The notes: generated by a model not told the origin, from the sequence alone. DNA of 64,000 bases from Minisyncoccota bacterium (GCA_028711065.1 JAQTSY010000002.1:8263-72262), one strand, 5' to 3'; numbered from the stretch's first letter, positions 6,988-63,820 are shown. A program made the numbers and translations.

Positions 6988-6996
6988 CTATCCACA
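6988..6996. promoter_or_regulatory. DnaA-box-like site ctatccaca (8/9) upstream of secreted-protein gene 7078
   Basis: Near match to TTATCCACA; one of a recurring set. Confidence 0.3.
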
Positions 6997-7077
6997 GGAG
7001 GAAAGTATGTCTCCTGGTATACTAAAATTAGCATTTTTACTTTGTCCTCTTATTACTAACTAGTATCAATCTTTCGT

Positions 7078-8469
7078 ATGAAGAAATTTATAGGTATTAT
7101 CGTCATTGTTTTGATCGGAGTCGGTGTTTTTCTTTTCTTTCAAAACAATAATGGTTCTAATCTCTTGAGCAGTCTGACGGGCAGTGGGGATCTTGCTGCG
7201 ATCGGTGCCTTTGATGCCAGCTCTTTCTGTGCTTCTAATAATAATTCGATCAAAACTTGCAACACTGCGGGCGCAGGTATGTGTGAGCGCTATCTTGGTT
7301 CGTGTGTTCCTCAAGACACTGGTAAAAGTCTGCGTGTCGTGGTTTTTGCCTACAGCGCAGATCCTGCGAAGCCAGGGACAACTGATGCAGATAGGATTGA
7401 TCTTGTGAGAGGCGGATTTGGAGGAGAACCTATCTGGTTAACGGCAAATGCAATCCAGGTAGTAGTAACAAAAATGCCGAATGGATTCAGATCACGTGTT
7501 GTGAAAAATGTTCCGATTGGCAGCGTAAAATGGAATATCAAAGCGGGTTCTCTCGTCATAGCAAAAAACCAAACTTCTAGCGGTGCTTATAAAGTAACAT
7601 TGCCTGCGGGGCACGGGAGTTTAAAAGTTACGGCTGATGTGGCCTCTGCTTCCGGAGCCAGTGCTCGGGATAGTAAAGGTACTGCCGCAACTGTTATGAA
7701 GGGGTCAGGAAGCTATAGTGTTGTATACGGAGATCCATATATAAAATCGATAACCCTCACTGCCGATCCAACGACTATAGTAGCTCCTGGGAGTACTCAT
7801 GTTACTGTAAAAATTGATTCAAACGTTCCTTTCATATTCGCTCCTTACGGATTTTTTGATAGGGCTACTTATAGTTGCGAGTCAGGTAGTCCGAGTGTCG
7901 AATGGAATCATACCGATTTTTATTGCGGTTATAGTACCGTTGGCGAGAAAACCATTGTCTATTATGCACATGCAAAAGTCGGCGAAAAACAAGTGGGATT
8001 GACAGCTTCTACGAAAGTAACAGTTGTTGCTCCTACGCCTACTCCGACCCCAACTCGTGCTCCGACTCCGACACCTACCCCAACCGCGACTCCAACTCCA
8101 ACCGCGACTCCTGTCCCTACACCGACCCCAACGCCAGTTTGTCCTTACGGAGCGAGACGAACAAGCATTAGCTCTCCTCTTACAGCAAGCGGGATAGTTG
8201 GGCAGCAGTTCCATTATGGTCTCTCTGCGGGATACACACCTTACGGCGGCACATCTTATTATTACAAGTCTCATTTGGGCGCAACACCCCCTTTCCCTCC
8301 AGGATTGAGGGGAACGAATGGATTTGATGACACAGAGTATTCTATTGACGGTACTCCTACTACTCAGGGCACATATTCAGTTCCTATCCATGCAACAAAT
8401 ATATGCGGTACGGATAATGAGACACTCGTTATCACGATCACAGGACCATCTCCTCTTACAAGTCACTAA
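7078..8469 (+). CDS. secreted/membrane-anchored protein with Pro-Thr linker
   Basis: N-terminal hydrophobic anchor MKKFIGIIVIVLIGVGVFLFF; PT-rich linker APTPTPTPTRAPTPTPTPTATPTPTATPVPTPTPTP. Confidence 0.6.
   Translation: MKKFIGIIVIVLIGVGVFLFFQNNNGSNLLSSLTGSGDLAAIGAFDASSFCASNNNSIKTCNTAGAGMCERYLGSCVPQDTGKSLRVVVFAYSADPAKPGTTDADRIDLVRGGFGGEPIWLTANAIQVVVTKMPNGFRSRVVKNVPIGSVKWNIKAGSLVIAKNQTSSGAYKVTLPAGHGSLKVTADVASASGASARDSKGTAATVMKGSGSYSVVYGDPYIKSITLTADPTTIVAPGSTHVTVKIDSNVPFIFAPYGFFDRATYSCESGSPSVEWNHTDFYCGYSTVGEKTIVYYAHAKVGEKQVGLTASTKVTVVAPTPTPTPTRAPTPTPTPTATPTPTATPVPTPTPTPVCPYGARRTSISSPLTASGIVGQQFHYGLSAGYTPYGGTSYYYKSHLGATPPFPPGLRGTNGFDDTEYSIDGTPTTQGTYSVPIHATNICGTDNETLVITITGPSPLTSH
8032..8142 (+). 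repeat. Pro-Thr linker-coding low-complexity tandem repeat (ACNCCN units) within gene 7078
   Basis: Repeated ccgac/ccaac/actcc units encoding PTPT. Confidence 0.6.
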
Positions 8470-8492
8470 TTCCAGTTTCTCAGCGTATTTAA

Positions 8493-8523
8493 AACAAAAG
8501 CCCTTTGAGGGCTTTTGTTTTTC
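8493..8523 (+). terminator. Hairpin aaaagccc-tttga-gggctttt plus T-run after gene 7078
   Basis: Stem-loop with trailing TTTTT. Confidence 0.6.
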
Positions 8524-8573
8524 TAGCAGAACACTTTATTTTTCTGTTGTAATGTATGAGAGAGCAATCGCTA

Positions 8574-8582
8574 TGCTATAAT
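8574..8582 (+). promoter_or_regulatory. Extended -10 element TGcTATAAT upstream of gene 8628
   Basis: TGn+TATAAT located 46 nt upstream of ATG. Confidence 0.4.
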
Positions 8583-8627
8583 CAATAATTAATCAGGAAT
8601 TATTCGGTTAACTTCAAAAACAGTAAT

Positions 8628-11756: not shown

Positions 11757-11818
11757 AGTTCGCTAGTGTAGCCGTTAATTTGGATTTTGTCGAATCCCGT
11801 AGTAAGATTCTTGTCTAT

Positions 11819-13189
11819 ATGGAAAGGATTGAGAATTTTCTCTCTCGGCACGGATGGATCACGCTTCTCGTGCTTAGTCTCGTGAGCCACTTCACGCTTT
11901 TCGGCTATCCGAAAGAAGTTGTGTTCGACGAGGTGCATTTTGGAAAGTTCGCGACGGATTATTTCACCGGAAATTTCTTTTTTGATCTTCATCCTCCTTT
12001 GGCGAAGCTCCTCATCACTTTTTTTGGCTGGATCGGGGGTTATCAGCCGGGTTTTAGTTTCGCATCGATCGGCCAGAATTTTCCCGATTCAAGTTATCTG
12101 TGGCTCCGACTCTTGCCTGTCATTGCTGGAGTGCTTTTGCCGATCATCATTTATTTTCTCTGTCTCAAACTACACTTTTCTAAAACAGCCTCATTCGTCG
12201 CGGGACTTCTCATTATCCTAGAAAATTCGCTCTTGGTTCAGTCTCGATTTATTCTTCTCGACAGCTTACTCTTGCTTTTTGGGTTCGGCGGGATTTTGCT
12301 ATCGATCATTGCTCGGGAGAGAAAACTTATGTGGCTTTCCTTTCTTTCCGGAGCCAGCCTTGCCTGCGCCTTTTCCATAAAATGGACTGGACTTTCTTTT
12401 CTCGGCTTGGTAATTCTTTGGGAGCTCTGGAACGGAATTCGAAATAAAGTTTCACTTAAGGGGTTGATAATCAAGGTGGTTTCTTTTTGCATCATTCCGG
12501 TACTTCTCTATATGGCTATTTTTGAAGTTCATTTTCTTCTTCTGCCGAAATCCGGCACGGGAGATGCTTTCTTGACTACGGCTTTTCAGGGGACACTTGC
12601 CGGAAGTCAATATGCAGGAAAAGAACCTGCGCCCAGTTTTATTTCAAAGTTTCTTGAGCTCAACAAGGTGATGTATACAGCCAATTCTCCGTCTCTCACG
12701 CACCCTTACGGAAGCAAGTGGTGGACGTGGCCCCTCATGCTTCGCCCTATCTATTATTGGAACCACGCGGGAGATGTTCCCGGCACTGAAGCAAAAATTT
12801 ATCTCATCGGGAATCCAGTTTTGTATTGGGGAGGGCTTTTATCTGTATGGCTTTTGTTTTGTTCCGTCCTGCTTCATTTTAGGAAATACAAGCCGAAGCT
12901 TGAAATTATGGCTTTTCTTTCTGTTGGATACCTTGTAAATCTTTTGCCGTTTATGTTTATCGCCAGAGTGATGTTTTTATATCACTATTTTACAGCGCTT
13001 ATCTTCTCAATTCTCATTATGGTATTTCTCATTGATTCGATCGAAAATCGCAAGACAAGATATACCCTTTTCATTCTTCTCGTCGCACTGTCACTTGTCC
13101 TTTTTCTCTTTTTTGTACCACTCACTTATGGCATTCCACTTTCGGAACATGGGCAAGCGCTTCGCTTCTGGTTTAATTCATGGAGATGA
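11819..13189 (+). CDS. protein O-mannosyltransferase-like glycosyltransferase (PMT / GT39 family)
   Basis: Multi-TM; loop-1 motif DEVHFGKFATDYFTGNFFFDLHPPLAKLLI typical of PMT/GT-C. Alternative start at 11780. Confidence 0.8.
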   Translation: MERIENFLSRHGWITLLVLSLVSHFTLFGYPKEVVFDEVHFGKFATDYFTGNFFFDLHPPLAKLLITFFGWIGGYQPGFSFASIGQNFPDSSYLWLRLLPVIAGVLLPIIIYFLCLKLHFSKTASFVAGLLIILENSLLVQSRFILLDSLLLLFGFGGILLSIIARERKLMWLSFLSGASLACAFSIKWTGLSFLGLVILWELWNGIRNKVSLKGLIIKVVSFCIIPVLLYMAIFEVHFLLLPKSGTGDAFLTTAFQGTLAGSQYAGKEPAPSFISKFLELNKVMYTANSPSLTHPYGSKWWTWPLMLRPIYYWNHAGDVPGTEAKIYLIGNPVLYWGGLLSVWLLFCSVLLHFRKYKPKLEIMAFLSVGYLVNLLPFMFIARVMFLYHYFTALIFSILIMVFLIDSIENRKTRYTLFILLVALSLVLFLFFVPLTYGIPLSEHGQALRFWFNSWR

Positions 13190-15493: not shown

Positions 15494-15533
15494 AGAATTA
15501 AATTGCTAATTATTAATTTCTAAAAAATAATGC

Positions 15534-16685
15534 TTATGATTTTACTACTTCCGGCTCCGCTTCCGCAATAGATTCGCCTTTTGCTGATTGGATATCAATT
15601 TTCCATCCAGTAAGTTTTGCGGCGAGGCGGACATTTTGTCCTCCCTTTCCGATAGCGAGCGATTGCTGGTCGGACGCAACTTCGACTATCGCTTTTCTTT
15701 CTTTCTCATCAATTTGCACTTTCAAAATTTTTGCAGGAGAAAGCGCGTCTTCGATAAATCTCTTTGGATCAGCTGACCATTCAATGATGTCTATTTTTTC
15801 TCCGCCGAGTTCACTCATGACAGTAGAGACCCGCACTCCTCGTTGTCCCACAAGTGATCCAACAGGATCAACATGTTCGTCTTTTGAAGAGACGGCAATT
15901 TTGGTTCGTGAGCCTGCTTCTCGGGCAACCGCTTTTACTTCCACCGTTCCATTTGCGATCTCCGGCGCTTCGACAGCAAAAAGCTTTTCCAAGAATTTCG
16001 GATGCGCGCGAGAAATGCGAAGGAATACTCCTTTAGTATTGTCTTCTACTTTATAAAGATAACCTCGCACTCGCTCGCCTTGCTGGTAGCGTTCTCCGGG
16101 AATTTGCTCTTCGTATGGCAAAACTGCAGTCGTTCGTCCCATATCAATAAAGATATTTCCTCGCTCCACTCTCTGCACTGTTCCAGAGACGATTTCTCCT
16201 TCGCGCTTTCCGTATTCAGCCAACACTCCAGTTTTTTCTGCTTCGCGGATTTTCTGAATGATAACTTGTTTCGCAGTCTGCGCAGAAATTCGTCCGTAAT
16301 CATCTTTTGATTCAAGCGGGAAGACAATTTCTTCTTCGACTTGCGCGTCTTTTTTTATTTTCTTCGCGTCAGCAAGAAGGATGTGATGTTCAGGATTGAA
16401 TCGGATTCGGTCATCTTCGACTCCTTCTTCCACTTTTGATTCCCCCTCCTCTTCTTCAGGGAAAATAACTTTTTCCGGATCGACAACAATTTTTACTTGC
16501 AAAAATTCTACTTTTCCGCTGTTCAAATCAAATTTTGCGCGGACAATCTGTCCTTTTTTTCCGTACTCTTTTTTGTACGCGGTTGCCAAAGCGACCTCGA
16601 TCGCTTCGATGAGTTTATCTTTCGGAATACCGCGCTCTTCACCGAGCTGGTCAATGACTGAATTTATAATCTTTAAATCAAACAT
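15534..16685 (-). CDS. nusA: transcription termination/antitermination factor NusA
   Basis: N-terminal domain, S1 domain, two KH domains (AIGKGGQNVRLAAKLTGWKIDI). Confidence 0.93.
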   Translation of the reverse strand: MFDLKIINSVIDQLGEERGIPKDKLIEAIEVALATAYKKEYGKKGQIVRAKFDLNSGKVEFLQVKIVVDPEKVIFPEEEEGESKVEEGVEDDRIRFNPEHHILLADAKKIKKDAQVEEEIVFPLESKDDYGRISAQTAKQVIIQKIREAEKTGVLAEYGKREGEIVSGTVQRVERGNIFIDMGRTTAVLPYEEQIPGERYQQGERVRGYLYKVEDNTKGVFLRISRAHPKFLEKLFAVEAPEIANGTVEVKAVAREAGSRTKIAVSSKDEHVDPVGSLVGQRGVRVSTVMSELGGEKIDIIEWSADPKRFIEDALSPAKILKVQIDEKERKAIVEVASDQQSLAIGKGGQNVRLAAKLTGWKIDIQSAKGESIAEAEPEVVKS

Positions 16686-16763
16686 AGTTTTTCCTTCTAA
16701 ATTGATAATTTCTTTCTTTTTTACCCTTTTGGGTAAAAAAGAAGCCCGCCGGAAGGCGAACTG

Positions 16764-16772
16764 TTATCCACA
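16764..16772. promoter_or_regulatory. DnaA-box-identical site TTATCCACA (10-mer gTTATCCACA) upstream of giant secreted-protein gene
   Basis: Exact 9-mer, 46 nt upstream of ATG 16818. Confidence 0.45.
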
Positions 16773-16817
16773 GTATACATCCTGTATCTGCCATCTGTCA
16801 AATGCCCTATGGTATAA

Positions 16818-29613: not shown

Positions 29614-29642
29614 AATTTCAATATTTTTTCTCTTTGCAAAAG

Positions 29643-29651
29643 TTATCCACA
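29643..29651. promoter_or_regulatory. DnaA-box-identical site TTATCCACA (10-mer gTTATCCACA) upstream of secreted-protein gene 29798
   Basis: Exact 9-mer in the 5' region. Confidence 0.45.
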
Positions 29652-39832: not shown

Positions 39833-39841
39833 TGTGGATAA
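39833..39841. promoter_or_regulatory. DnaA-box-identical site TGTGGATAA (10-mer TGTGGATAAC) upstream of secreted-protein gene 40007, adjacent to TTGACT
   Basis: Exact 10-mer. Confidence 0.45.
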
Positions 39842-40006
39842 CTTTCTATTGTAAATTTTGTTAATAAGCGTATTCTTAACGGTAAGAGAGACTTCTCAAC
39901 ATTTGAGGAAAGCGGTGACTTTTAAGAAAAGCACCGAGTTTTTTGTCTTTAAAATAGTTTTACGTGTCGTCATTTCTTAACCATATTATAAATAATTCAA
40001 AATAAA

Positions 40007-43229: not shown

Positions 43230-43391
43230 CCGCCTAAATTTTCTACTTATGGCTCTTTAATTGAGTTTTTGTAGAAATTTGTATTATTTTGATAACTTAC
43301 TACTATTTTTTATCCCCGAAAACTTTGGCGGATAAATATGGGTGTGGATTAGTAGTGATAAAAATCAAGTATAGCATGATACTATGGACGT

Positions 43392-49355: not shown

Positions 49356-49362
49356 TGTGTGT

Positions 49363-49626
49363 ATGACAAATACCAAACAAAAAATGGTTCGACGGCTCAA
49401 GATTATTGAGGGACAAGTGCGGGGGTTACAAGAAATGATCGAGAAAGGAAAATATTGTATCGATATCATCACCCAGACATCTGCGGTGAAGCAGGCGCTT
49501 TCGGGCGTAGAAGATACGCTTATGGAAAATCATTTGAACACGTGCGTAGTGCATCAGATGCAGAAAGGCAAAGAGGGCACTGCGGTCAAAGAAGTTTTGA
49601 AAGTGTATCGACTCAAACGCAAATAA
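49363..49626 (+). CDS. csoR: CsoR/RcnR-family metal-sensing transcriptional repressor
   Basis: [36 protein letters not shown]...ENHLNTCV with Cys-His-Cys ligand pattern. Confidence 0.85.
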
Positions 49627-49631
49627 AATAT

Positions 49632-51911
49632 ATGAGCACTCAAAAAACATTTCGCGTCCGTGGAATGCACTGCGCCTCATGCGCAGGGATTATTGAAAAG
49701 ACTTTCAAAAAGACTCTGGGCGTGGCTTCTGCCGAAGTAAATTATGGAACTGAAAAGGCTAAAGTCTCATATGACGAATCAAAAATAAGTCCTCATCACC
49801 TTTCAAAAAAGATAGAACCGCTTGGGTATTCTCTTGTCACTGAAGATATGACGGCAGAACAAATGGGGATGTCCGCCGATGAACATGCCGCTCATATAGG
49901 CTTGAGTCAATCAAAGCGGGAAAAACTTGCCGAGATTCGCTCAATTCGAAACAAAGTGGTTTCAGTCATCCCTCTCGCTGTCGTGAGTATCTTGTTTATG
50001 GTGTGGGACATTGTTGGGGGAATGTCTGCATCTGTAGAAACTTTTTTCAAATATTTCCTTCCGATTTCTGCAACCTACACGCTTTTCTATGTTGGAAAGC
50101 CATACCTTCAGGGTTTTGGCCGGTTTCTCCGCTTTGGCCATGCAAACATGGACACGCTTATTGGTATCGGCACTTCGGTCGCCTATGTATATAGTCTCGC
50201 AATTATTTTTATCCCGACCTTCTCACAATTTGTCGGCAATTCCAATACTTTCTTTGATGTCACTATTATCGTCATCACATTTATCGCACTTGGAAAATAT
50301 TTGGAAGCGCGTTCAAAATTAAAAACCGGGGATGCTATCGAGAAACTTTTAAATCTTCAAGCAAAGACGGCTCTTGTGTTGCGGGGTGGGAAAGAAGTCG
50401 AAATTTCCTTTTCCGATGTGAAGCATGGAGATTTGGTAATTGTAAAACCAGCACAGAAAATTCCGGTTGATGGAGAGGTCACGGAAGGGAATTCGTTCAT
50501 TGATGAATCGATGATAATGGGAGAGCCGATTCCGGTAGAAAAAAATATCGGTGATCGGGTCGTGGGGGGAACGATGAACACGACAGGGTATTTTGTATTT
50601 AAAGCCACAAAAGTTGGTGATGAGACAGTACTGGCGCACATTATTAAGGTCGTCGAAGAGGCGCAGGGAAGCAAAGCTCCAATCCAAGCTTTGGCAGATA
50701 AAATCTCGGCTGTTTTTGTGCCGATTGTCCTCGTACTATCTTTTGTAACTCTAGGGCTATGGCTTGTCCTCGGTTCGCACTATCTTGGATTTTCGCAAGC
50801 ACTCTCGGACGGCCTCGTTTCTTTTGTTGGAATTCTGGTCATTGCGTGTCCCTGCGCGCTTGGGCTCGCGACCCCGACCGCGATCATTGTTGGAGTCGGC
50901 AAGGGAGCAAAAGAGGGAATTTTAATTAAAGATGCCGCGTCTCTCGAGAAACTGCATCTTGCAAATGTCGTAGTGGTGGATAAAACAGGTACGATTACCA
51001 AAGGGAAACCGGAACTTATCGATGTAATTTGCGCTCAAAATCAAAACAAAGACGAGGTCATTTCGATTCTCGCATCTTTGGAAAAAAGATCAGAGCATCC
51101 GATTGCTCATGCTATTGTCGCGCATGCAAAAGAGAATAAAATAGATTTCTTAAATGTACAGAATTTTGAGATTGTAAAAGGAAAAGGTCTGAGCGGAGTA
51201 ATAAATGGAAAACAGTATTTTGCCGGGAGTGCAAAATTTGCAGAAAGTTTTGGTCTCGCTTTTGATTACAGGACGATAGAAAACGAAACTCACGAAGGAA
51301 AATCTCCCGTTGTTCTTTTTACCAGAGAGTCTGTACTTGGTGTGGCTTTGGTTGCTGATAAGATAAAAGAAGAAGCTGTTCAGGCAGTCAAAAATCTCCA
51401 GGCGCTTGGTATCAAAGTAGTAATGCTTACCGGAGATAATAAAAACACCGCCCATTTTATCGCGAAAAAGGCCGGAATTACGGACGTGGTATCAGACGCT
51501 TTACCAGAAGAAAAATTGAAAGAAATACAGAGACTTCAGTCAAATGGAAATATTGTGGCTATGGCGGGGGATGGAATTAATGATGCTCCTGCGCTTGCGC
51601 AAGCCGATATCGGAATTGCTATGAGCACCGGGACAGATGTGGCAATCGAAACTGCTGGAATCATTCTTCTTCACGGAGATATTTCAAAATTAATGAAAGC
51701 AATTCGACTCTCGAAACTCACGATGCGAGGCATTAAGCAAAATCTTTTCTGGGCATTCTTTTACAACATTGTCGGCATTCCTTTGGCGGCTGGTGCATTC
51801 TATCCAGTGTTTGGAATCCTTTTGAATCCTGTTTTTGCGGGAATGGCTATGGCCTTGTCGAGTGTGTCTGTGGTTTCAAACTCATTACGAATTAAAGCGA
51901 AAAAATTATAA
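49632..51911 (+). CDS. copA: copper-translocating P1B-type ATPase
   Basis: N-terminal HMA (GMHCASCA), CPC motif [29 protein letters not shown]. Confidence 0.95.
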
Positions 51912-51914
51912 TTT

Positions 51915-52940
51915 ATGAGCGCACAAACATATACTTTTCATGTTCACGGAATGCATTGCCGAGCTTGCGAGCTTATGACGGAAAGTGAGATCGGCGACTT
52001 GCCGAATATTTCGAGTGTGAAATCGAGTTTTAAAAATCACTCGGTAGAAGTTGTGGGGGATTTCGGCGCCAAAACTCCGGAACAAATCGCCGAAGAGCTT
52101 ACCGTGCCCCTGAAACCCCACGGATACACAGTTTCTATCGAAAAACAAAACCATTCCGCAAAATGGGGAGATTTTAAAATTGCTGTGCCGATTGCCCTTG
52201 GGTTTGCCGTTTTATTTGTGCTTCTACAAAAACTTGGCATTGTAAATCTCGTGAATGCTGGAAATGTCACATACGGGACAGCATTCGTGATCGGTATCAT
52301 TGCTTCACTTTCGACGTGTATGGCAGTTGTCGGAGGACTTCTTCTCTCAATGTCGGCGACGTTTGCCAAAGAGGGTGATAAGGTAAAGCCGCAACTTATG
52401 TTCCACGGAGGACGGATTGTTTCATTCTTTATTCTCGGCGGAGCGATTGGTGCGATTGGTTCTGCGTTTACTCTCAACACATCAGCGACATTTATCCTAA
52501 GCCTCATTATTGGCATTGTGATGCTTATTCTCGGTGTGAATCTTCTCGACGTCTTCCACTTTGCAAAAAAGCTCCAGCCCAGTATGCCGAAATTTATTGC
52601 AAAGCATGCTCACGGCGTATCCAAATTCAATCACACACTTACCCCGCTTCTTGTTGGTGTCGCCACATTTTTCTTGCCGTGCGGGTTTACGCAATCAATG
52701 CAACTCTATACTTTGACGACCGGGAGTTTTTTGAAAGGAGGACTCACTATGCTTGCCTTTGCGCTCGGCACACTTCCGGTTCTTGCACTTGTAAGTTTCA
52801 GCTCATTCAGTATGAAAAATAATTCGAAATCTGGAATTTTTTTCAAGAGTGCTGGGCTCGTAGTAATTCTCTTTGCTCTTTTTAATTTAATAAATAGCTT
52901 GGTTGTAGTTGGAATTATTTCACCCGTGTTCAATTTCTGA
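51915..52940 (+). CDS. HMA-domain fused to polytopic membrane domain (DsbD_2/TauE-like); putative metal-handling membrane protein
   Basis: N-terminal GMHCRAC metal-binding fold, then 6+ TM segments with LPCGFTQS motif. Confidence 0.75.
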   Translation: MSAQTYTFHVHGMHCRACELMTESEIGDLPNISSVKSSFKNHSVEVVGDFGAKTPEQIAEELTVPLKPHGYTVSIEKQNHSAKWGDFKIAVPIALGFAVLFVLLQKLGIVNLVNAGNVTYGTAFVIGIIASLSTCMAVVGGLLLSMSATFAKEGDKVKPQLMFHGGRIVSFFILGGAIGAIGSAFTLNTSATFILSLIIGIVMLILGVNLLDVFHFAKKLQPSMPKFIAKHAHGVSKFNHTLTPLLVGVATFFLPCGFTQSMQLYTLTTGSFLKGGLTMLAFALGTLPVLALVSFSSFSMKNNSKSGIFFKSAGLVVILFALFNLINSLVVVGIISPVFNF

Positions 52941-52953
52941 TAAACTTACAAAC

Positions 52954-53337
52954 ATGAAGGCAACTATTATTTCCATCATAATTTTCGTAGCTCTTATCGG
53001 AGGAGCCTTTCTTCTCACGAGAGGTGTTTCCAATACTCCAGTCGCAAACGCAAACAACGTAACTATAGTTGACGGAAAACAAATTATCGAAATTCATGCG
53101 AAAGGTGGATATCAGCCGAGAAAGAGTATTGCAAAAGCTGGCATTCCCACCATTCTTCGATTTGATACAAGCGGAACATTCGACTGTTCATCTTCTGTCC
53201 GAATCCCGAGTATGAATATCTCGAGACTTCTTCCGCAGACCGGCACAACAGATATTGATATAGGAAATCAGCAAGTGGCAACCCTTCGAGGGACTTGTGG
53301 AATGGGAATGTATCCATTTGAAGTGACATTTAACTAG
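52954..53337 (+). CDS. small membrane-anchored cupredoxin-like protein (putative)
   Basis: TM anchor IISIIIFVALIGGAFLL; C-terminal CSSS...TCGMGMYPFEVTF Cys/Met-rich motif; typical partner of the HMA-membrane protein in copper cassettes. Confidence 0.45.
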   Translation: MKATIISIIIFVALIGGAFLLTRGVSNTPVANANNVTIVDGKQIIEIHAKGGYQPRKSIAKAGIPTILRFDTSGTFDCSSSVRIPSMNISRLLPQTGTTDIDIGNQQVATLRGTCGMGMYPFEVTFN

Positions 53338-55643: not shown

Positions 55644-55678
55644 CACGAAAAAAGCCCTCAACTGGGGCTTTTTTCGTG
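55644..55678. terminator. Long hairpin cacgaaaaaagccc-tcaact-gggcttttttcgtg after fusA
   Basis: 14-bp stem including A/T tracts; bidirectional. Confidence 0.65.
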
Positions 55679-55679: not shown

Positions 55680-55688
55680 TGTGGATAA
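55680..55688. promoter_or_regulatory. DnaA-box-identical TGTGGATAA (10-mer TGTGGATAAC) abutting the -35 of the lipoprotein promoter
   Basis: Exact 10-mer, 2 nt upstream of TTGACA. Confidence 0.45.
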
Positions 55689-55690
55689 CC

Positions 55691-55720
55691 TTGACAAATA
55701 GGGTGCTTTGGTGGTATAAT
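55691..55720 (+). promoter_or_regulatory. Consensus sigma70-type promoter TTGACA-N18-TATAAT driving lipoprotein gene
   Basis: Perfect -35 and -10 hexamers. Confidence 0.6.
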
Positions 55721-55788: not shown

Positions 55789-56256
55789 ATGTGCAAGATC
55801 ATCACGTTCGCGAGCCCGTTTCTCTTCTTCATTTGCTTACTCACTGGCTGTTGCCGTGAGGAAGTGATGGAAGAGGGACAGTTCCGCGATGTTCCCTTGT
55901 CCTACGCCGGCGTTTCCGGCGAGTACAAGGTCTCGATCTCCTCCGAGCGCGAAGGAGAAAAACAGGTAACCCTCGATCCCATAGAGGGAAAGGGAGACCG
56001 GTTTTGGCGGATCTTCGCCAACATCACCACTTTTCAAGGGAAAACGGAAATCTCTCTCCACGTCTGGACGCCGAGTGACGAATGGAAGTTCGTCCACTAC
56101 AGAGTCTATGATAATGGAAAAGAGAAGTCCGTAAGGAAGCAGGGCGGCCGCTTCTCGAAAGAGGAGCTCAAGAGTGCGAAAGCACTTCTGAAGCAGGCGC
56201 TGGCGGACGTCGAGAACGACGAACACCGGCGGCCAACCCAGGTTTCCGAACCCTGA
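55789..56256 (+). CDS. lipoprotein (lipobox LLTGC), high-GC, foreign-looking
   Basis: AAGGAG SD 8 nt upstream; signal peptide plus LTGC lipobox; ~55% GC. Confidence 0.55.
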   Translation: MCKIITFASPFLFFICLLTGCCREEVMEEGQFRDVPLSYAGVSGEYKVSISSEREGEKQVTLDPIEGKGDRFWRIFANITTFQGKTEISLHVWTPSDEWKFVHYRVYDNGKEKSVRKQGGRFSKEELKSAKALLKQALADVENDEHRRPTQVSEP

Positions 56257-56363
56257 ACGATTGTCTACAATGATAGACAAAAATGCCACGCTCCCTGAGT
56301 GTGGCCTTTTTGATTCCCAATAATTCTCCACAGCTTGCCTAGAGCCTTTGCACTCTATGCTGT

Positions 56364-57587
56364 ATGATAAAAGCAATGGAACAAAAAGAGAAAAATCTCT
56401 TTGGGGCTTCTCTCAAATGTAAGAGTATAGAATTTTATCTCTGCCTCACTTTACTCGTCTTTGCTTCTTTCTCCATCGTAATCGAAAAAGTCGAAGCTTC
56501 TTTTAGTGATGATCCGAACTTCAAGGTTGAACTTATCACCAATCCAACTGCCACAACGGCCACGGTGCCGCCAGATTATAACGTAACTCTTACTGCTCGT
56601 GTTACTACTCCTCCCGCAGGAATATCGAAATTCATCTATACGATGATCTGCGATTACTATAACCCTGATGCTGGAATAGAAGAGTCGTGGATCCGTGCTG
56701 CTGGCGAGTATGGCGCTCCGATTGTCTATACTCCAGACACAACGTATACGATGTCAAAACCATGTGTATACTCTCATCCGAAAAGTTATGTTGATCCGGC
56801 TACTGGAAAGGCGGTCTATTTTCCCTATACGCCATTTATAAGAGTGGAGGGGAGAAATGAGCAGGGATGGGGCGCCCGAGCTATTGATTATAAGACGATA
56901 GACGTTTTTCCACCTTCGCCAGATGCGATAGGAAACAAAACTGCTACTCTCGTCTTTACGAACAAAGTCCTGCCAAGCAAAGAAGGATTTCCTTCAGTGA
57001 AGCAAGCAAGCGATTTCTCTGTGTTTGTTGATACGACAGAGTACCCGCTTGGAGACAGCGTCTCCATTCCCGTGACTCCCGGGTATCACTTGGTGAGTTT
57101 GGTCGGAGATCCTTATTATGACCAAACATCCTCTCCAGGTTGCAATACAGAATCTGTCTATGCCGGAGATAACGATGTAGCGACCTGCGCATTCACACAG
57201 ACATTCAAAGGCGGTTGGCTTACGGTAACCATAGATGGAGCATCGATAAATGGTTCCTATGACGCATTCACTCCGGTGCTTGCGGGAGGGTCTAATATTC
57301 AGAAATCTTTGAAGATTGGGGAAGCAACATATCTACCTATGGGTGTTTATAAAGTGAAAGAAAACCTCATCAATGCTCATAATCCGAAATTCAGCGGAGA
57401 TTGCAAAAAGCTTGGAGGGGGAGCTCTCTCGAAAATTGCGCAAGTGGTTGTCAATAATGGGACTCATTCCTATTGTCACATTACCAACAGTGGCCAATCG
57501 GCATTTCTAAGCGGACAAAGTTTTGTCGCGAATATATTGGGAGGATTCGGTTCTCTTTTCAACACCATTCAATCGATGTGGAAATAA
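56364..57587 (+). CDS. secreted hypothetical protein (407 aa)
   Basis: N-terminal anchor FYLCLTLLVFASFSIVI; alternative start 56376. Confidence 0.6.
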   Translation: MIKAMEQKEKNLFGASLKCKSIEFYLCLTLLVFASFSIVIEKVEASFSDDPNFKVELITNPTATTATVPPDYNVTLTARVTTPPAGISKFIYTMICDYYNPDAGIEESWIRAAGEYGAPIVYTPDTTYTMSKPCVYSHPKSYVDPATGKAVYFPYTPFIRVEGRNEQGWGARAIDYKTIDVFPPSPDAIGNKTATLVFTNKVLPSKEGFPSVKQASDFSVFVDTTEYPLGDSVSIPVTPGYHLVSLVGDPYYDQTSSPGCNTESVYAGDNDVATCAFTQTFKGGWLTVTIDGASINGSYDAFTPVLAGGSNIQKSLKIGEATYLPMGVYKVKENLINAHNPKFSGDCKKLGGGALSKIAQVVVNNGTHSYCHITNSGQSAFLSGQSFVANILGGFGSLFNTIQSMWK

Positions 57588-57604
57588 TCGAGATCTAAAA
57601 GGAT

Positions 57605-60600
57605 ATGCATTCATTTCTTAAATACTTCACGATCACATTTATCACTGCTTTCCTTGTTATTGGTGGCGGAATTCTTCTCACACATTCTCCTCGGCATGTT
57701 GCTGCTGATTTTTCAGGTCCAGCTCCCTCAACTCTTCCAAATACATTAAGTGTAAAACTTGAAACTATTCCCGAACCTCCTCCAGGAGAAACTACGGATG
57801 GAATTCTTGTCCCTCCAGGACTTTCGAATCAAAAATTTAAAGCCAGTGTGTATCTGAGCGATGGCAGTTTGGATACTAACTTTCCTATTACCTATCAATT
57901 TGGATGCGATGACGATACCAGCAAAACAGGAAGTGGTAAGACTGAGTATGAAAATCCCTTTACAGTCGGAGATCCTGGCCCCGATTCTCCAATTTTGTGT
58001 AATTTCACTACGATTCAAAAGTATGATGCGAACGTACCGGGTCTTGGAGGAGCTTCGCGTGCGTACTACTATCCGACCATCTACAATGTTTACGACCACA
58101 GCGGATCGGGTCCGGGACTCGCGAGTAGGACTCTCGTATTGAAGCCCGATAGCGACGATTGGAGTATTTCGCTGACCGGGAGAATTTTTGATAAAGCGCC
58201 TGGGGATTGGTTTTACCTCGGCGCTGTTCAGGGAGATATCACTCCCAAAAAGAATCATGAAGGATTAACGTACACCTATGACTTTGATTGCGCTGCTCCT
58301 CAAGATGGGGGACAAACCACGAAAAGTTTTCCGAATCGTGCAGCAACCTCGCTTAGCACTACCTGTCGTTTTCCCGATATCCCCGATACCACTTACCACC
58401 TCGGACTTACAGTGACGGATAGCAAGGGAGATTACAAGACTACAACGTATGATGTGAAAACTCCATCGGTAACGCCCACACCGACTCCGCCTGGTCCTAC
58501 CCCAACTCCGACAGCAACCCCGACCCCAACTCCAACACCTACGCCTGGAGGATGCAGTGTTTCTCTCACCTCCGATCAAGACACATACTTTATTCATCCG
58601 CCTTCGGAAGTTCAGGCAACATATACAGCGACAATTCACAACCCGCCTCCAGGCGCAACAAGATTCGAGTATACTTTCATCTCTTATCAGCGTACGAATG
58701 TGGATACATTGGGTCCGGTTGATGGAGGAGATTCATATGTACAAACTAGATGGTATAACAGCACCAAAGATAAAAAAGGCAATGCAGCTAATTCAGCTAC
58801 AGTAAGCGTGCACGCGAAAGTGAAAGGAGGACAGTCGTGCGGTGAAGCTGATAAAGCGGTGAGGATCGAAGAAAACCCGAGCTCTATGAGCGTAGTTCTC
58901 AAAATCAAGCCGCAAAAGGTGGCAAAGTTGCCGGATAAAAAGGACAAGTCGACAGCGGCAAAAGCTGATAAGCCGGATGCTCGCTCAAAAGTGGAAGAGA
59001 CGGCTACTATCACCATAGCGAAAGGTGCAGCCAATAAGCCTCAAGGACCTTATAAATACACACTGACGGGTGGGGGAGATTGTACCCCGGCGACGACCGT
59101 TTCGAATACGCAACTGACCCAGCTTTTTAATTGTTATTACAAAGACGGTACACCTTCCGGAAAGGAATATACGAAAAAAATTCATGTTGAAGATTCGAGC
59201 TACCCTCCGCAGACTGCAGAAAATACTGCGAAATTAAAAGTGGTAGATCCGGCGCCTGTGCCTCTTGGCGAGATAGATGTTGTGGTGAAAGTCGCTCCGC
59301 CTGCAAAAGGAGTCAAAGAAACCCTAAAGGCGAAAGATGTGACTTTGAAGGTGGGGAGTACGTCTGCTAAAGATGGAAGCAAGATCAAATTCTTGCCTCT
59401 CACTACCTATCCTGTTGTGGTAGACCCTCAGCCAAACCACACGGCAGATATGAGCGGATGTGGCGAAGGTTCAATCACACTTACTCCAAGTGCTCCGAAG
59501 CAGACGTGTACTGTCACTGAAGTGTCTTCTCCCAATCCAACCCCAACGCCCACACCCACCCCGACCCCTACGCCTACTCCTCCAATACCAACCCCTACTC
59601 CGACTCCGACACCTACACCAACGCCGAGTCCGACTCCAACCCCTCCAGCGAGTTGTGACAGGAATCCTATTTTCTCCGACAACCCTTGTGAAAATAGGTT
59701 TGGATCGGATTCTGTGACGACGAGCAAAGATCTCGGGCGTTCAAATGTGTCCGAAAATTCCGTAAAGAGAAACACTATCCCAAACCTAACGAACTATTGT
59801 CAGAATGTTCCGACTAATCAGTGTGCTGTCCACAATCCTTGTGATCTGAAAAGATTTTGGTGCTATACAAAATTAGTTGGCACAAACACCTATGATCGGA
59901 CTAGTTCGAGTGATTCGGATTATGGCTACAAGGCTTGTTCCTGCGGTTTTTCAGGTTCTGGACTTCCAACACCCACCCCAACCCCAACGCCAACTGACAT
60001 TCCTCCCGTTACCCCAACTCCCACACCAACACCAACCCCCACTCCTATTCATACGCCGACTCCAACAGTAACTCCTACGCCAACGCCTACTCCAACACCT
60101 ACTCCAGGTAAACCGGCAGGACAAAATATAAGACTCAATGTGCTTTCAATTCCTGGGAAGGCTGGTGTGACTTCAAAAGTTGCGGTTATTGCACGAGTGG
60201 GTAAAGTAAGCTTTAGCCTTGGGAATATGAATACTTTTCAGCCGATAGAGGCGGGAAAGTACGATATTGTAGAGCGCAGTGAGAAAGGCTACACGGCGGT
60301 AGTATCTGGCGATTCCGCATGTGAGACAAAAAATGCTAATGGAAGTGATACGCCAACGACATTCACGAACAATGGGACTATGACTGTTGTGGGGAGCGTG
60401 ACTATAAATTCCGGAGAGAATATTTCTTGCATCATCACTAATACCGCTGTATCAAATGTGCCGAAAACTCAAAATATTAAACTTGATGTAAAAGTAGTCG
60501 GAGGAGAATCAGCAGTGAGAGATTTCCTGATTGCTCGAGCAGGTACAGTAAGTTTTAATCTGGCGAATCTCAATACTTTCCGTCCTATTAAGGCGGGGAC

Positions 60601-61786
60601 GTATGCTATTCAGGAACATAGCCGAAAAGGCTACACGGCGGTAGTATCTGGCGACTCTTCGTGCGAAACAAAAAATAAAGATGGGAGCGACAAGCCGACA
60701 GTTTTTACCGGGAATGGCAGTCTTGTTTCAGTGGGGTCAGTCACAATTAATGCTGGAGAGAATATCTCTTGTGTCATTACTAACACTGCCGCAACAAAAC
60801 CAGCATCGCTTACGGTAGAGAAAATCGTCGCTGGAAAAGGCGCCCCAGATAAGGCGAACAAGTTTGATGTCTGTATCGGAACGGATTGTGCGAAGGGTTC
60901 TAAAACTGAAAAGAATTTGGTTGTGGGGCAAGAATATACTGTTTCAGAGAAGAATCTCCCTCATTATGCACCAAGCTGGGCTCTTCCTTGTGTCCAGTCA
61001 AAAACTGATCCGACAAAAGCGACGATCACACTTTCCGCAGGAGAGAATACGTGTTATGTCACGAATACGTATACAAAACCGGGGTTGGATTTGTCTTATG
61101 ACAAGACAAAAATGGGTCTCTTCGATCCAAAATCGGGTATTCCTGTAGTAATCCACGCAACCATTGATGTGAGTGCTCTTATTATTGGATATTTTGTGGA
61201 TTCAAACGGTCAGATAGTTACGATATCTATTACGCCAGATGCTCGTTCCGGTCTTATGACAAAATATTACACCCTTCGCAATAGTTCAGGGGATCCGTCG
61301 GATAAGTTGAAAGGAAACTTAACCACGCTTCTCAGTGGAAGACAGCTTTCTTTTACCGCTGTCGATCAAAATGGTAAATCTAGCACACTCACTATGGAGT
61401 TGGACAAATCGGATAAATGGGATGAGTGGGGGAAGGCTTGGAAGAAAAATCATATTATCCCTACGATCAGTGTTGATTCGGTATTAATAGATAGTAAACT
61501 CGCCAAAGAACTTAATGTAAATGGAAAGGATAGGCAGCTCTCAGACGATAACGCTCTGAAAGCTCTCTTGGACCGCATTGCAAATGACCCTTCGCGTGTG
61601 CATGAAGGAAATATAACCAAAGGAGCAGACGGTTCATACCAATATGATCCGCTTCCTCCTCCACCACCGCCAAAAGGAAATCCCAGAAAAGTATCCTCAT
61701 CAGTAGATCCTCTTGCGGGCGTGAAAGAAGGCCTCGCTAATATCTGGTCAGGATTTATGAGTCTTTTCCAGAGTGTCACGCCATAA
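57605..61786 (+). CDS. giant secreted surface protein (1393 aa) with PT linkers, PKD-like module and three tandem ~105-aa domains
   Basis: Signal/anchor FTITFITAFLVIGGGILL; linkers PTPTPPGPTPTPTATPTPTPTPTP, SSPNPTPTPTPTPTPTPTPPIPTPTPTPTPTP, LPTPTPTPTPTDIPPVTPTPTPTPTPTPIHTPTPTVTPTPTPTPTPTP; repeated domains ending GEN(I/T)(S/T)C(I/V/Y)(I/V)TNT. Confidence 0.75.
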   Translation: MHSFLKYFTITFITAFLVIGGGILLTHSPRHVAADFSGPAPSTLPNTLSVKLETIPEPPPGETTDGILVPPGLSNQKFKASVYLSDGSLDTNFPITYQFGCDDDTSKTGSGKTEYENPFTVGDPGPDSPILCNFTTIQKYDANVPGLGGASRAYYYPTIYNVYDHSGSGPGLASRTLVLKPDSDDWSISLTGRIFDKAPGDWFYLGAVQGDITPKKNHEGLTYTYDFDCAAPQDGGQTTKSFPNRAATSLSTTCRFPDIPDTTYHLGLTVTDSKGDYKTTTYDVKTPSVTPTPTPPGPTPTPTATPTPTPTPTPGGCSVSLTSDQDTYFIHPPSEVQATYTATIHNPPPGATRFEYTFISYQRTNVDTLGPVDGGDSYVQTRWYNSTKDKKGNAANSATVSVHAKVKGGQSCGEADKAVRIEENPSSMSVVLKIKPQKVAKLPDKKDKSTAAKADKPDARSKVEETATITIAKGAANKPQGPYKYTLTGGGDCTPATTVSNTQLTQLFNCYYKDGTPSGKEYTKKIHVEDSSYPPQTAENTAKLKVVDPAPVPLGEIDVVVKVAPPAKGVKETLKAKDVTLKVGSTSAKDGSKIKFLPLTTYPVVVDPQPNHTADMSGCGEGSITLTPSAPKQTCTVTEVSSPNPTPTPTPTPTPTPTPPIPTPTPTPTPTPTPSPTPTPPASCDRNPIFSDNPCENRFGSDSVTTSKDLGRSNVSENSVKRNTIPNLTNYCQNVPTNQCAVHNPCDLKRFWCYTKLVGTNTYDRTSSSDSDYGYKACSCGFSGSGLPTPTPTPTPTDIPPVTPTPTPTPTPTPIHTPTPTVTPTPTPTPTPTPGKPAGQNIRLNVLSIPGKAGVTSKVAVIARVGKVSFSLGNMNTFQPIEAGKYDIVERSEKGYTAVVSGDSACETKNANGSDTPTTFTNNGTMTVVGSVTINSGENISCIITNTAVSNVPKTQNIKLDVKVVGGESAVRDFLIARAGTVSFNLANLNTFRPIKAGTYAIQEHSRKGYTAVVSGDSSCETKNKDGSDKPTVFTGNGSLVSVGSVTINAGENISCVITNTAATKPASLTVEKIVAGKGAPDKANKFDVCIGTDCAKGSKTEKNLVVGQEYTVSEKNLPHYAPSWALPCVQSKTDPTKATITLSAGENTCYVTNTYTKPGLDLSYDKTKMGLFDPKSGIPVVIHATIDVSALIIGYFVDSNGQIVTISITPDARSGLMTKYYTLRNSSGDPSDKLKGNLTTLLSGRQLSFTAVDQNGKSSTLTMELDKSDKWDEWGKAWKKNHIIPTISVDSVLIDSKLAKELNVNGKDRQLSDDNALKALLDRIANDPSRVHEGNITKGADGSYQYDPLPPPPPPKGNPRKVSSSVDPLAGVKEGLANIWSGFMSLFQSVTP
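58478..58548 (+). repeat. PT linker-coding repeat 1 in gene 57605
   Basis: acNccN units. Confidence 0.55.
59533..59650 (+). repeat. PT linker-coding repeat 2 in gene 57605
   Basis: acNccN units. Confidence 0.55.
59966..60110 (+). repeat. PT linker-coding repeat 3 in gene 57605
   Basis: acNccN units. Confidence 0.55.
60120..60800 (+). repeat. Tandem internal domain duplication (two ~330-nt units, ~45% aa identity) within gene 57605; a third degenerate copy follows to ~61080
   Basis: NIRLNVLSIPGKAGVTSKVAVIARVGKVSFSLGNMNTFQPIEAGKYDIVERSEKGYTAVVSGDSACETKN... versus NIKLDVKVVGGESAVRDFLIARAGTVSFNLANLNTFRPIKAGTYAIQEHSRKGYTAVVSGDSSCETKN... Confidence 0.7.
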
Positions 61787-61804
61787 GCATTTTTCATTGA
61801 TTTA

Positions 61805-61845
61805 CCACAGCAAAAATCCTCCGTTCTGGAGGATTTTTGCTGTGG
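61805..61845. terminator. 18-bp-stem hairpin ccacagcaaaaatcctcc-gttct-ggaggatttttgctgtgg after gene 57605; right arm overlaps DnaA-like box
   Basis: Perfect long stem with A/T tracts. Confidence 0.65.
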
Positions 61846-61849
61846 ATAC
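61841..61849. promoter_or_regulatory. DnaA-box-like TGTGGATAC (8/9) upstream of secreted-protein gene 61919
   Basis: Near match. Confidence 0.3.
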
Positions 61850-61918
61850 TCTTTTTGTGAGGGGGGTATATAATAAAATCAGTAATTATTATTTATTCTA
61901 AATAAGCGCGAATATCCT

Positions 61919-63757
61919 ATGAAGAAATACTTATCACTTTTAAGCGTCGTCTTCGTTCTTGCTGCTGCAAGTTTTGCTTTTTCTGCGGTTTTGGTAAAAG
62001 CTGTGACAAACGGAGCGACTGACCCGTCCGTCACCAATTCTATTTATGTCACCGATATAAGCGGTCCAAGATCCATCGCTTTGAATACTGTTGCAAAAGT
62101 AACTGCGACAGTTCTCATTCCTGCCAATACGACAGTTACCTCGAGCGTAGGATGGGGGGAAAGACTCGAGACTCCCACAAAGGTCACTTATCCCGCTTCT
62201 TCTGTTGATAGAAAAGAAGTATTCACTTTCACTCACACCTATACTAAAAACGGTTCGTATAAATTTAGCCTTCCTCTCACGGGGACGGGAGCGAGCGGAG
62301 CCTCTGTGCCAATCGTCCCCGAATCGGACAAACTTTTTCCTATATCAGTAAGAGAGAAACCTCTCTCGGCGTTTGGGAATAATCCAATCACACTTCACTT
62401 TGCGCCCAAAGGTGCAATATGTCCTCCTGGTTATTCTTATCAATACTGCTATTACACTTTCTGGAGACCTGGAGCCACACAAGTCGGCCAAGTTGCGTTT
62501 TGGAAACTTGAAGCAAGGACTGCTGTCTCTGCCCCAGTCACTATTCACGCAAAGTGGGGAGACGGGCAAACTTCTGATATCACTCTTGCTTCTCCGGCTT
62601 CCGATGCTGATTTTCTTTTGAGTCACACCTACAATGCTACAAGCAAATATAATGTCGAATTTACCGCTTCTGATATGATGACTCCATCACATACTGTTGT
62701 TCTCAAAGATACAGTAACTGTGAGACCTCTTAGCGGAAAAAATAAAGCAGATCTTCCAGCGCCGACACCAACCCCCACACCAACACCTACTCCGACACCA
62801 ACACCTACGGTGACACCGACGCCAACAGTAACTCCGACCCCTACGGTCACTCCAACACCGACACCGACGCTTTCTTTTTCCACTTCTCAAACAACTGTGC
62901 AGGCGGGAGCGGCTGGAGATGCTGGCGTCATTCATTACACTTGGTCAAAGAGTTCCCCATACTTCACGGCTTATGCGGTGTTAGGAAGCGGCGCGTCATG
63001 TTATAACCTTGTGATGGCGAATCAGAATCAAAACACAAACGGCATTCCTCCTGTTGCGAGTTATGCAATTGTACCCGCTACTGTGCCTCCAGGAAGCTAT
63101 ACTCTCATACTTCAAAGTTCGCCATGTCCTGCAAGCAGCCATCAGCCTTCAGCATATGCGACAGGTATTACAGTAATTGCTCCACTCTCTTGTACCATCA
63201 CTTCGAGTATTCCAAGTGGGCATGTCACTGATCATGTTGACTTCACTACGAATGTAACCGGCGGGTTGGCTCCATTTACTTATGTATGGAACGCAGATGG
63301 GCAGAGTTTGCCTGGAGGGACGAGCAATCTAACAAGTAATATCTTGTCGATTGGGCGTTGGACGACTGGCATAGGGCAAAAAACTGTTACCGCCACTTTC
63401 ACTTCGGGCGGTCAGAGCGCGTCGTGCTCAAAGACATTTACCGTGACTTCACTCTTACCAGTTGCTGTCACCGATCCGGCAGCAGGTGTCGTTCGGCATA
63501 TTGGATCAGCGTATACTTTTTCTTGGGATAAGACACAATTGGCGGCGACCTCTGCAGATATCTATGTTGATACCATAAATCCTACGAGCGGTGTGATAAT
63601 CAAGTCATTCCTCATCCTTCCGGCTCGGCCAAACGACGGCAAGATGAGTGTTGCACAAAAGATTCCAACAGGCTCTGCTGGTACTGCAGAGGTGCGCTTA
63701 GTGAAAGCGGGGGCTTCAGGTCCAGCAATCATCAGCAATCCCTTCACTATTCAATAG
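61919..63757 (+). CDS. secreted protein with PT linker (612 aa)
   Basis: Signal peptide LSLLSVVFVLAAASFAFSA; linker PAPTPTPTPTPTPTPTPTVTPTPTVTPTPTVTPTPTPT. Confidence 0.7.
   Translation: MKKYLSLLSVVFVLAAASFAFSAVLVKAVTNGATDPSVTNSIYVTDISGPRSIALNTVAKVTATVLIPANTTVTSSVGWGERLETPTKVTYPASSVDRKEVFTFTHTYTKNGSYKFSLPLTGTGASGASVPIVPESDKLFPISVREKPLSAFGNNPITLHFAPKGAICPPGYSYQYCYYTFWRPGATQVGQVAFWKLEARTAVSAPVTIHAKWGDGQTSDITLASPASDADFLLSHTYNATSKYNVEFTASDMMTPSHTVVLKDTVTVRPLSGKNKADLPAPTPTPTPTPTPTPTPTVTPTPTVTPTPTVTPTPTPTLSFSTSQTTVQAGAAGDAGVIHYTWSKSSPYFTAYAVLGSGASCYNLVMANQNQNTNGIPPVASYAIVPATVPPGSYTLILQSSPCPASSHQPSAYATGITVIAPLSCTITSSIPSGHVTDHVDFTTNVTGGLAPFTYVWNADGQSLPGGTSNLTSNILSIGRWTTGIGQKTVTATFTSGGQSASCSKTFTVTSLLPVAVTDPAAGVVRHIGSAYTFSWDKTQLAATSADIYVDTINPTSGVIIKSFLILPARPNDGKMSVAQKIPTGSAGTAEVRLVKAGASGPAIISNPFTIQ
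62758..62872 (+). repeat. PT(V) linker-coding tandem repeat in gene 61919
   Basis: Repeated acggtgacaccgacgccaaca-like units. Confidence 0.6.
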
Positions 63758-63774
63758 GACTGACTGAATCGTGA

Positions 63775-63806
63775 GAAAACCCCCAAGTATTCTCTTGGGG
63801 TTTTTC
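63775..63806. terminator. Hairpin gaaaacccccaag...cttgggggtttttc after gene 61919
   Basis: Stem with A/T tracts. Confidence 0.6.
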
Positions 63807-63811
63807 GTTTT

Positions 63812-63820
63812 TGTGGATAA
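63812..63820. promoter_or_regulatory. DnaA-box-identical TGTGGATAA (10-mer TGTGGATAAC) upstream of secreted-protein gene 63921
   Basis: Exact 10-mer immediately after terminator. Confidence 0.45.

Follow-up and report, generated by a model that had tools for sequence, protein, structure and literature searches.

A DnaA-box-identical word between genes and at predicted promoters in a Paceibacteria genome segment and its relatives

Recurrence and identity of the motif

The analyzed window is a stretch of 64,000 nucleotides of DNA from a Minisyncoccota bacterium (GCA_028711065.1 JAQTSY010000002.1:8263-72262). On the basis of its NusA locus and of homologues of its elongation factor EF-G and PilB proteins, it was placed in the Patescibacteria (Candidate Phyla Radiation, CPR), class Paceibacteria (Parcubacteria), near Candidatus Taylorbacteria. 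The gene content fits this placement: a type IV pilus operon, ComEC, an H+-pyrophosphatase, a protein O-mannosyltransferase and many secreted proteins of unassigned function are encoded. By the gene map, 8.45% of the window is intergenic. The element considered here is a 10-mer, TGTGGATAAC, that matches the DnaA box and recurs between the genes of this window.

Five exact copies of TGTGGATAAC were found, at positions 16763 and 29642 on the minus strand and 39833, 55680 and 63812 on the plus strand, exactly as listed in a first-pass annotation of this DNA. Dinucleotide shuffles of the window contained a mean of 0.05 copies, and none of the 100 shuffles reached at least five. When low-complexity words are set aside, TGTGGATAAC is the sole 10-mer present five times, and every copy of the 8-mer TGGATAAC in the window falls within one of these five 10-mers; the tenth base, C, is invariant. 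The exact copies are all intergenic (5/5, probability approximately 4e-6), in agreement with the annotation, compared with 4 of the 14 one-mismatch copies. The boxes of the window, near-matches included, occur singly, one per intergenic region, 2-16 kb apart and spread over 57 kb. Two near-matches that had also been annotated proved to be real: TGTGGATAGG on the minus strand at 6987 (read as CCTATCCACA on the plus strand) and TGTGGATACT on the plus strand at 61841.

The DnaA box is defined by a 9-bp asymmetric consensus, TTATNCACA, with the stringent form TTATCCACA, and the window contains five exact copies of the latter. An oligonucleotide table (PMC11952115) gives the two strongest boxes of Escherichia coli oriC, R1 and R4, as CCCTGTGGATAACAAGG and GAGTTATCCACAGTAG, respectively. 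The 10-mer at all five sites is identical to R1/R4, flanking bases included, and the longer 11-mer CTGTGGATAAC is complete at 16763 and 55680. Its asymmetry is what would be expected of a binding site for a monomeric protein.

The resemblance to oriC ends with the box itself, since the window sites are unclustered, lack an AT-rich unwinding element and have no dnaA or dnaN gene nearby. We thus rejected a chromosomal origin, as did the first-pass annotation: the boxes are single and dispersed, no cluster appears in the window even when one mismatch is allowed, and neither gene was found there. The search for dnaA and dnaN, which combined Pfam on the window, a regular expression for the DnaA signature and tblastn with an approximate Bacillus subtilis DnaA query, was negative for the window and for 171 loci. 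Paceibacteria in general do encode dnaA (PMC12102498).

A dispersed repeat of the REP or MITE kind, which had been named in advance as an alternative that would overturn a regulatory interpretation, was also rejected. Outside the 10-mer no conserved column exists within 25 nt on either side of the window sites, and the proteins encoded downstream of the boxes are not paralogues of one another; together these observations rule out both a dispersed repeat and inheritance through gene duplication. A DNA uptake sequence was discarded in view of the low density of the word (0.08 per kb in the window, with no coding copy) and of its distribution in related genomes, where 26 intergenic copies were counted against 7 coding ones.

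Terminator and promoter context of the sites

Downstream of fusA, the gene encoding EF-G, an intrinsic terminator (55644..55678, plus strand) is followed by an exact box (55680..55689, plus strand). The box lies 5 nt behind the T-run of the terminator and 1 nt ahead of a perfect predicted promoter, TTGACA-18-TATAAT (55691..55720, plus strand; 12/12 matches, with TG before the -10 hexamer), so that it abuts the -35 hexamer. The gene behind this promoter, 55789, encodes a lipoprotein-like protein of 155 aa.

The exact box at 16763..16772 (minus strand), within the 12-mer CTGTGGATAACA that is identical to E. coli R1, occupies a divergent region with nusA on one side and a gene for a 1160-aa secreted PKD-domain protein on the other. 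The predicted nusA promoter, TTGACA-18-TATACT (16772..16801, minus strand; 11/12 matches), is the best promoter-like site in 12 kb. Because the final base of this promoter coincides with base one of the box, the box spans about -7 to +3 and overlaps the predicted -10/+1 region. This box is located 78 nt upstream of nusA, and the earlier statement that no copy precedes a housekeeping gene therefore does not strictly hold.

The remaining exact boxes show comparable settings. The box at 29642..29651 (minus strand) is separated by 29 nt from the stop codon of pgk and by 147 nt from the downstream gene 29798, which encodes a membrane-anchored protein of 772 aa. That at 39833..39842 (plus strand) is situated inside a promoter-like stretch, TTGACT-19-TATTGT, between two divergent genes: 38958-39785 (minus strand), whose product has a membrane anchor, and 40007, which encodes an 858-aa protein with a signal peptide. 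The box at 63812..63821 (plus strand) follows a bidirectional-type intrinsic terminator (63781..63800, plus strand) located after gene 61919; it precedes TTGAGA-16-TACTAT by 6 nt and gene 63921 (905 aa in the related locus L087, signal peptide) by 100 nt.

Both near-boxes match the 10-mer at 8 of 10 positions. The one at 6987..6996 (minus strand) lies 40 nt past a terminator (6919-6947) and 82 nt upstream of gene 7078, whose 463-aa product has an N-terminal membrane anchor. The other, at 61841..61850 (plus strand), precedes gene 61919, which encodes a 612-aa protein with a signal peptide, by 69 nt and coincides in part with the -35 position of a promoter with the -10 hexamer TATAAT; the preceding terminator (61805..61845, plus strand; 19-bp stem) has a 3' arm that ends in the TGTGG of this near-box. 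The stem of that terminator is unusually long and carries CCACAG in its 5' arm, and the near-box is thus half buried in the hairpin. Two one-mismatch boxes are also intergenic: TGTGGATTA (43343..43351, plus strand), in a divergent SOD/GATase region and part of a 61-nt block shared at 100% identity with the related genome L081, and TGTGGAGAA (56324..56332, minus strand), upstream of gene 56364 (407 aa, membrane anchor).

The closeness of the sites to terminators and -35 hexamers noticed in the first-pass annotation was thus borne out, with hairpins ending 0-5 nt ahead of the boxes at 55680, 61841 and 63812. To describe this geometry more broadly, the best-scoring sigma-70-type promoter was sought from 70 nt upstream of the box to the start codon at 28 sites from the window and its relatives. 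In approximately 20 of the 28 the box is centred between -36 and -54 relative to the top-scoring prediction, in both orientations. Visual inspection of the clear cases shows 1-9 nt separating the box from the -35 hexamer, with the centre at about -45. Relative to the downstream gene, 7 boxes are co-oriented and about 14 anti-oriented. The occurrence of both orientations, together with the fact that GATAAC lacks T at position -7 of a -10 hexamer, argues against a sigma-factor element or an extended -10, and this candidate was rejected.

Intergenic bias, conservation and downstream genes

The related sequences used included 80 NusA-centred loci from GTDB genomes (1.17 Mb), EF-G look-ups, and an EF-G-centred metagenome set. 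Among the closest relatives, L081 and L082 represent the same genus, with genes 87-90% identical to those of the window, while the EF-G proteins of L083 and L084 are 87% and 82% identical, respectively. In the NusA-centred loci, where 10.4% of the sequence is intergenic, 16 of the 20 copies of the 9-mer lie between genes. An unbiased k-mer scan was then applied to 165 related loci (approximately 2.0 Mb, the window and near-duplicate loci being left out). At k = 8, 9 and 10, box words outranked terminator words and showed the strongest intergenic bias of all widely distributed words. The word TGTGGATAA was found 26 times between genes (in 23 loci) and 7 times within genes, against 1.5 and 13.9 copies expected from length, i.e. 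an approximately 17-fold enrichment between genes and an approximately 2-fold depletion inside them. For TGTGGATAAC the corresponding counts were 13 intergenic and 1 coding.

The bias of the box word persists in relatives down to 62% EF-G identity. Its presence across such distant relatives indicates that the factor binding it is conserved class-wide, a description that fits DnaA. The window is denser in boxes than the class average (5 copies versus approximately 1 expected; p = 0.004), and so are its nearest relatives (2 copies in 41 kb, 2 in 44 kb and 3 in 22 kb).

Boxes are also maintained at corresponding positions. After fusA, L081 and L082 keep TTTTTTCGTGCTGTGGATAACnTTGACAAA, with both the box and the -35 hexamer retained, behind a terminator whose stem shows compensatory substitutions; elsewhere the spacer has diverged, and other genes lie downstream. 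At the aligned position L083 has a one-mismatch box, TGGGGATAAC, and L084 has an exact TTATCCACA directly behind the EF-G terminator, in inverted orientation. The box behind pgk is likewise present, with its orientation unchanged, in L089, a locus of the same genus. Upstream of nusA, an exact box is present in 5 relatives and a one-mismatch box (TGTGTATAA, TGTGGATAT or TGTGCATAA) in about 8, at -89 to -155, co-oriented with nusA like the window box; in L090 the sequence TGTTGATAAC lies 2 nt ahead of the nusA promoter TTGACT-17-TATAAT.

Further boxes were observed in the relatives. L084 has exact or one-mismatch boxes at 9353, 12195 and 14485, located 1-23 nt past the rpsG, fusA and rpsJ terminators; all are opposite in orientation to the boxes that follow terminators in the window, and they occur upstream of housekeeping genes too. 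In six relatives, three co-oriented boxes, CTGTGGATAAC-TCTGTGGAAT-TGTGTATAAAAGACA, lie between a tRNA gene and yraN (UPF0102), at about 19960-20010 in L027, 18600-18650 in L028, 12480-12530 in L035, 18880-18930 in L041, 20450-20500 in L044 and 18190-18240 in L079. This array, which has no counterpart in the window, is located where the -35 and -10 hexamers would be. As it comprises only 2-3 boxes, occupies the -35/-10 place and is flanked by genes that do not diverge from it, it was considered as an oriC but is more probably a DnaA-box promoter.

The seven window genes that follow exact boxes or near-matches (7078, 16818/16827, 29798, 40007, 55789, 61919 and 63921) all encode proteins with a hydrophobic signal- or anchor-like N-terminus, and their start codons are 46-166 nt from the box. 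The description of the sites as lying 45-170 nt upstream of signal-peptide genes was therefore accurate. Most of the seven proteins have no Pfam match or contain only PKD, Kre9_KNH or SpaA-like Ig-type domains.

The same annotation had proposed a regulon of surface proteins and enrichment analysis upstream of signal-peptide genes. Such an analysis was performed on intergenic regions of 40-600 nt from the NusA loci, the first EF-G look-ups and the window. Of the 21 boxes counted, 17 precede genes with a hydrophobic N-terminus, whose upstream regions amount to 40.0 kb, and 4 precede other genes, with 63.3 kb of upstream sequence (binomial p approximately 1e-4). Three of the latter four belong to the yraN array. 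At the nusA-side sites the divergent partner gene encodes a signal-peptide protein in every case.

The preference is not restricted to this class of genes. In the EF-G metagenome set boxes also precede tuf (L103, L149) and a response regulator gene (L113), and two further sites of that set (L108/L160 and L138) precede genes whose products have visibly hydrophobic N-termini that score below the threshold used. In L084 the boxes precede ComEC, a divergent SOD/lactamase-B pair, and a small membrane protein gene followed by tuf. The proposed surface-protein regulon thus stands as a strong bias in the window (7/7) and in one set of relatives, and fails as an exclusive rule, given the boxes at nusA, tuf, the response regulator, SOD/ComEC and yraN. 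The bias towards secreted and membrane proteins is real in this genus and is not exclusive across the class.

In same-genus genomes, whose housekeeping genes share 87-90% nucleotide identity, the terminator-box-promoter junctions that follow fusA and pgk are conserved, and the large secreted proteins encoded behind them differ (window 55789-64000 versus L081 12443-22050, and window 29798-32116 versus L089 15606 onward). From this arrangement, both loci look like variable surface-protein slots. Between rpsG and fusA, the window also carries a copper/metal island (48866-53337) encoding a CopA-type P-type ATPase, an HMA-DsbD protein and a cupredoxin-like protein, which is absent from this place in L081-L084. 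The protein O-mannosyltransferase gene (11780-13189), of the eukaryote type with PMT and PMT_4TMC domains, adjoins many secreted-protein genes, which hints that the surface proteins may be glycosylated.

Several box-linked genes have structured leaders, none of which was recognized when the window was scanned with Rfam. The nusA leader (16686-16768, minus strand; fold z = -4.5) contains two hairpins with a T-run after the first: within 16686..16762 a hairpin at 16743-16762 is followed by the T-run and then by the second hairpin. The word of its first stem, AAGTTCGCC, is present in one copy, at any position, in each of 21 related loci, and the leader may be a conserved attenuator, perhaps serving NusA autoregulation. 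The leader of gene 29798 (29695-29797; z = -4.8) forms a long irregular hairpin followed by UUUU and is nearly 100% identical in L089 (about 15500-15600), where the neighbouring spacer is only approximately 75% identical. In the 5' region of gene 40007, about 70 nt past the box and the promoter-like stretch, a hairpin with a T-run (39905-39950) might serve as an attenuator in the leader or mark where a short transcript ends.

Possible function of the boxes

The reading that we favour over the others is that the sites may be single high-affinity DnaA boxes acting as promoter-proximal operators, and our confidence in it is about evenly balanced. It draws on the match to high-affinity sites, the restriction to intergenic regions with avoidance of coding sequence, the upkeep of position even where the box is inverted, the place upstream of the -35 hexamer and the one site over -10/+1. 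Most boxes lie in the untranscribed gap between the terminator of the upstream gene and the next predicted -35 hexamer, in either orientation. A DnaA monomer would bind each of them through its C-terminal helix-turn-helix domain and modulate the binding of RNA polymerase. The expected outcome would be repression at the nusA box and at the box in the promoter spacer at 39833, and repression or activation at boxes centred at about -45. Transcription of the box-linked genes, most of which in this genus encode large secreted or membrane proteins, would in this way depend on how much free DnaA the cell contains and hence on the replication cycle. That DnaA is the protein bound to the boxes, and whether it would repress or activate, are both inferred.

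Known DnaA-regulated promoters (dnaA, nrdAB and mioC of E. coli; dnaA, sda and ywlC of B. subtilis; the Caulobacter regulon) share with these sites an asymmetric TTATCCACA in or beside the -35/-10 region, in either orientation and far from oriC, and the window site over -10/+1 resembles a repressor operator. They differ in having a cluster rather than a single perfect box, and the sites described here have mostly large secreted or membrane proteins as targets, belong to an uncultivated CPR host and are putative as regards binding. A single box in or beside a promoter is sufficient to make synthetic reporters DnaA-responsive in E. coli (PMC12626423). The layouts used in those reporters, with the box upstream of -35, in the spacer or after -10 of a sigma-70 promoter, are those seen at 55680, 39833 and 16763, although the reporters are engineered E. 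coli constructs and the CPR sites are natural and conserved.

Several points weigh against the operator interpretation. DnaA-regulated promoters known from B. subtilis usually have several boxes, and here there is one at each. The promoter positions are consensus matches rather than mapped transcription start sites, and signal peptides were called with a crude hydrophobicity rule. Several nusA-side sites are orthologous and therefore not independent; when they are collapsed, the count becomes 12/14 (p approximately 4e-4). In the independent EF-G-centred metagenome set the bias towards secreted proteins is not significant (3/9, p = 0.35).

The boxes might instead form a reservoir that titrates DnaA and so times initiation, placed in gaps free of the sweep of polymerase, with any effects on neighbouring genes being secondary. 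Titration by chromosomal boxes is an established model for E. coli (bioRxiv 10.1101/2024.10.07.617004). Boxes of the strongest-affinity type that occur singly, in untranscribed gaps 0-5 nt past T-runs and in both orientations, would suit such a sink, as would the two-fold coding depletion noted above. Nothing in a pure sink calls for boxes within 1-9 nt of a -35 hexamer or on top of a -10, or for a preference for one class of genes, and outside this lineage the density of boxes is low (approximately 13 per Mb). The titrating loci datA of E. coli and the DnaA-box clusters of B. subtilis (Ishikawa et al. 2007, PMC2533591) likewise consist of intergenic high-affinity boxes outside oriC. They contain many boxes within a few hundred bases, an arrangement absent from the window, where the boxes are single and promoter-linked. 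We regard titration as possible but unlikely to be the explanation.

Somewhat less probable still is that another DNA-binding protein of the Paceibacteria, such as a monomeric helix-turn-helix regulator or a stand-alone protein resembling DnaA domain IV, binds TGTGGATAAC to govern a regulon of envelope or surface genes, in which case the exact match to the DnaA box would be coincidental or due to shared specificity. Secreted and membrane proteins, to whose promoters the sites are biased, are not a known class of DnaA targets. The invariant tenth base C would also be compatible with such a protein, and the window contains a gene for a TrmB-family regulator (815-1627). TrmB-type regulators, however, bind palindromes, unlike the asymmetric TGTGGATAAC, and a chance identity with E. 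coli R1/R4 over 10-11 bases is very unlikely. The same word is biased towards intergenic DNA across relatives with 62-79% EF-G identity, which would require a universally conserved factor, and the variants seen in relatives, TGTGTATAA and TGTGGAAAA, are inside the known degeneracy of DnaA boxes.

The tight coupling of boxes to terminators raises the idea that DnaA bound behind an intrinsic terminator serves as a roadblock or insulator against read-through into the next gene. Box and terminator are 0-5 nt apart at 55680, 61841 and 63812 and in L081, L084, L108, L113 and L138, and the box at 61841 forms part of a terminator stem. Schaefer and Messer are said to have described, in 1988, complexes of DnaA with its box that block RNA polymerase at E. 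coli asnC. Sites in divergent regions (16763, 39833 and the nusA side of the relatives) have no upstream terminator, and the closeness elsewhere could simply reflect short intergenic regions that hold both a terminator and a promoter; we consider the roadblock improbable. That the motif is without function, a product of chance, a dispersed repeat or a mobile element, we find scarcely credible, considering the shuffles, the exclusively intergenic exact copies and their dissimilar flanks, the retention of the box at matching positions elsewhere while its flanks change, and its rank as the top intergenic-biased word in 2 Mb; all that favours this view is that the sites in one window are few.

The CPR/Patescibacteria have tiny genomes with very few recognizable regulators, and to our knowledge almost nothing is known of their control of gene expression. 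Our literature searches found no paper joining the term "DnaA box" with Patescibacteria, and the 10-mer appeared there only as E. coli oriC and primer sequences. As far as these searches show, the sites would be an additional case of DnaA-box promoters, in a phylum without a described regulatory site. The presence of the word upstream of promoters of secreted and membrane protein genes suggests that DnaA may also be a gene regulator in these bacteria.

A broader and more tentative proposal is that in the Paceibacteria, and perhaps in the CPR more widely, DnaA is one of few global transcription factors. In an episymbiotic cell, single boxes of R1/R4 grade immediately ahead of the -35 hexamer would make nusA, some further genes and the surface and secreted proteome, with its adhesins and its large, variable proteins of the cell surface, depend on the replication cycle. 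The box-containing junctions would be the fixed 5' borders of slots in which surface genes are swapped among close relatives. We regard this extension as conceivable though doubtful.

The most intergenic-specific word in approximately 2 Mb of Paceibacteria DNA is thus a DnaA box located at promoters, which defines a testable candidate regulatory system. The box also provides a straightforward means of recognizing promoters and variable surface-protein loci in these genomes by sequence. Should another protein bind it instead of DnaA, the motif would still define the conserved operator of a class-wide regulator. If DnaA is the binding protein, the boxes may link replication status to the expression of the large surface proteins that are thought to mediate contact with the host.

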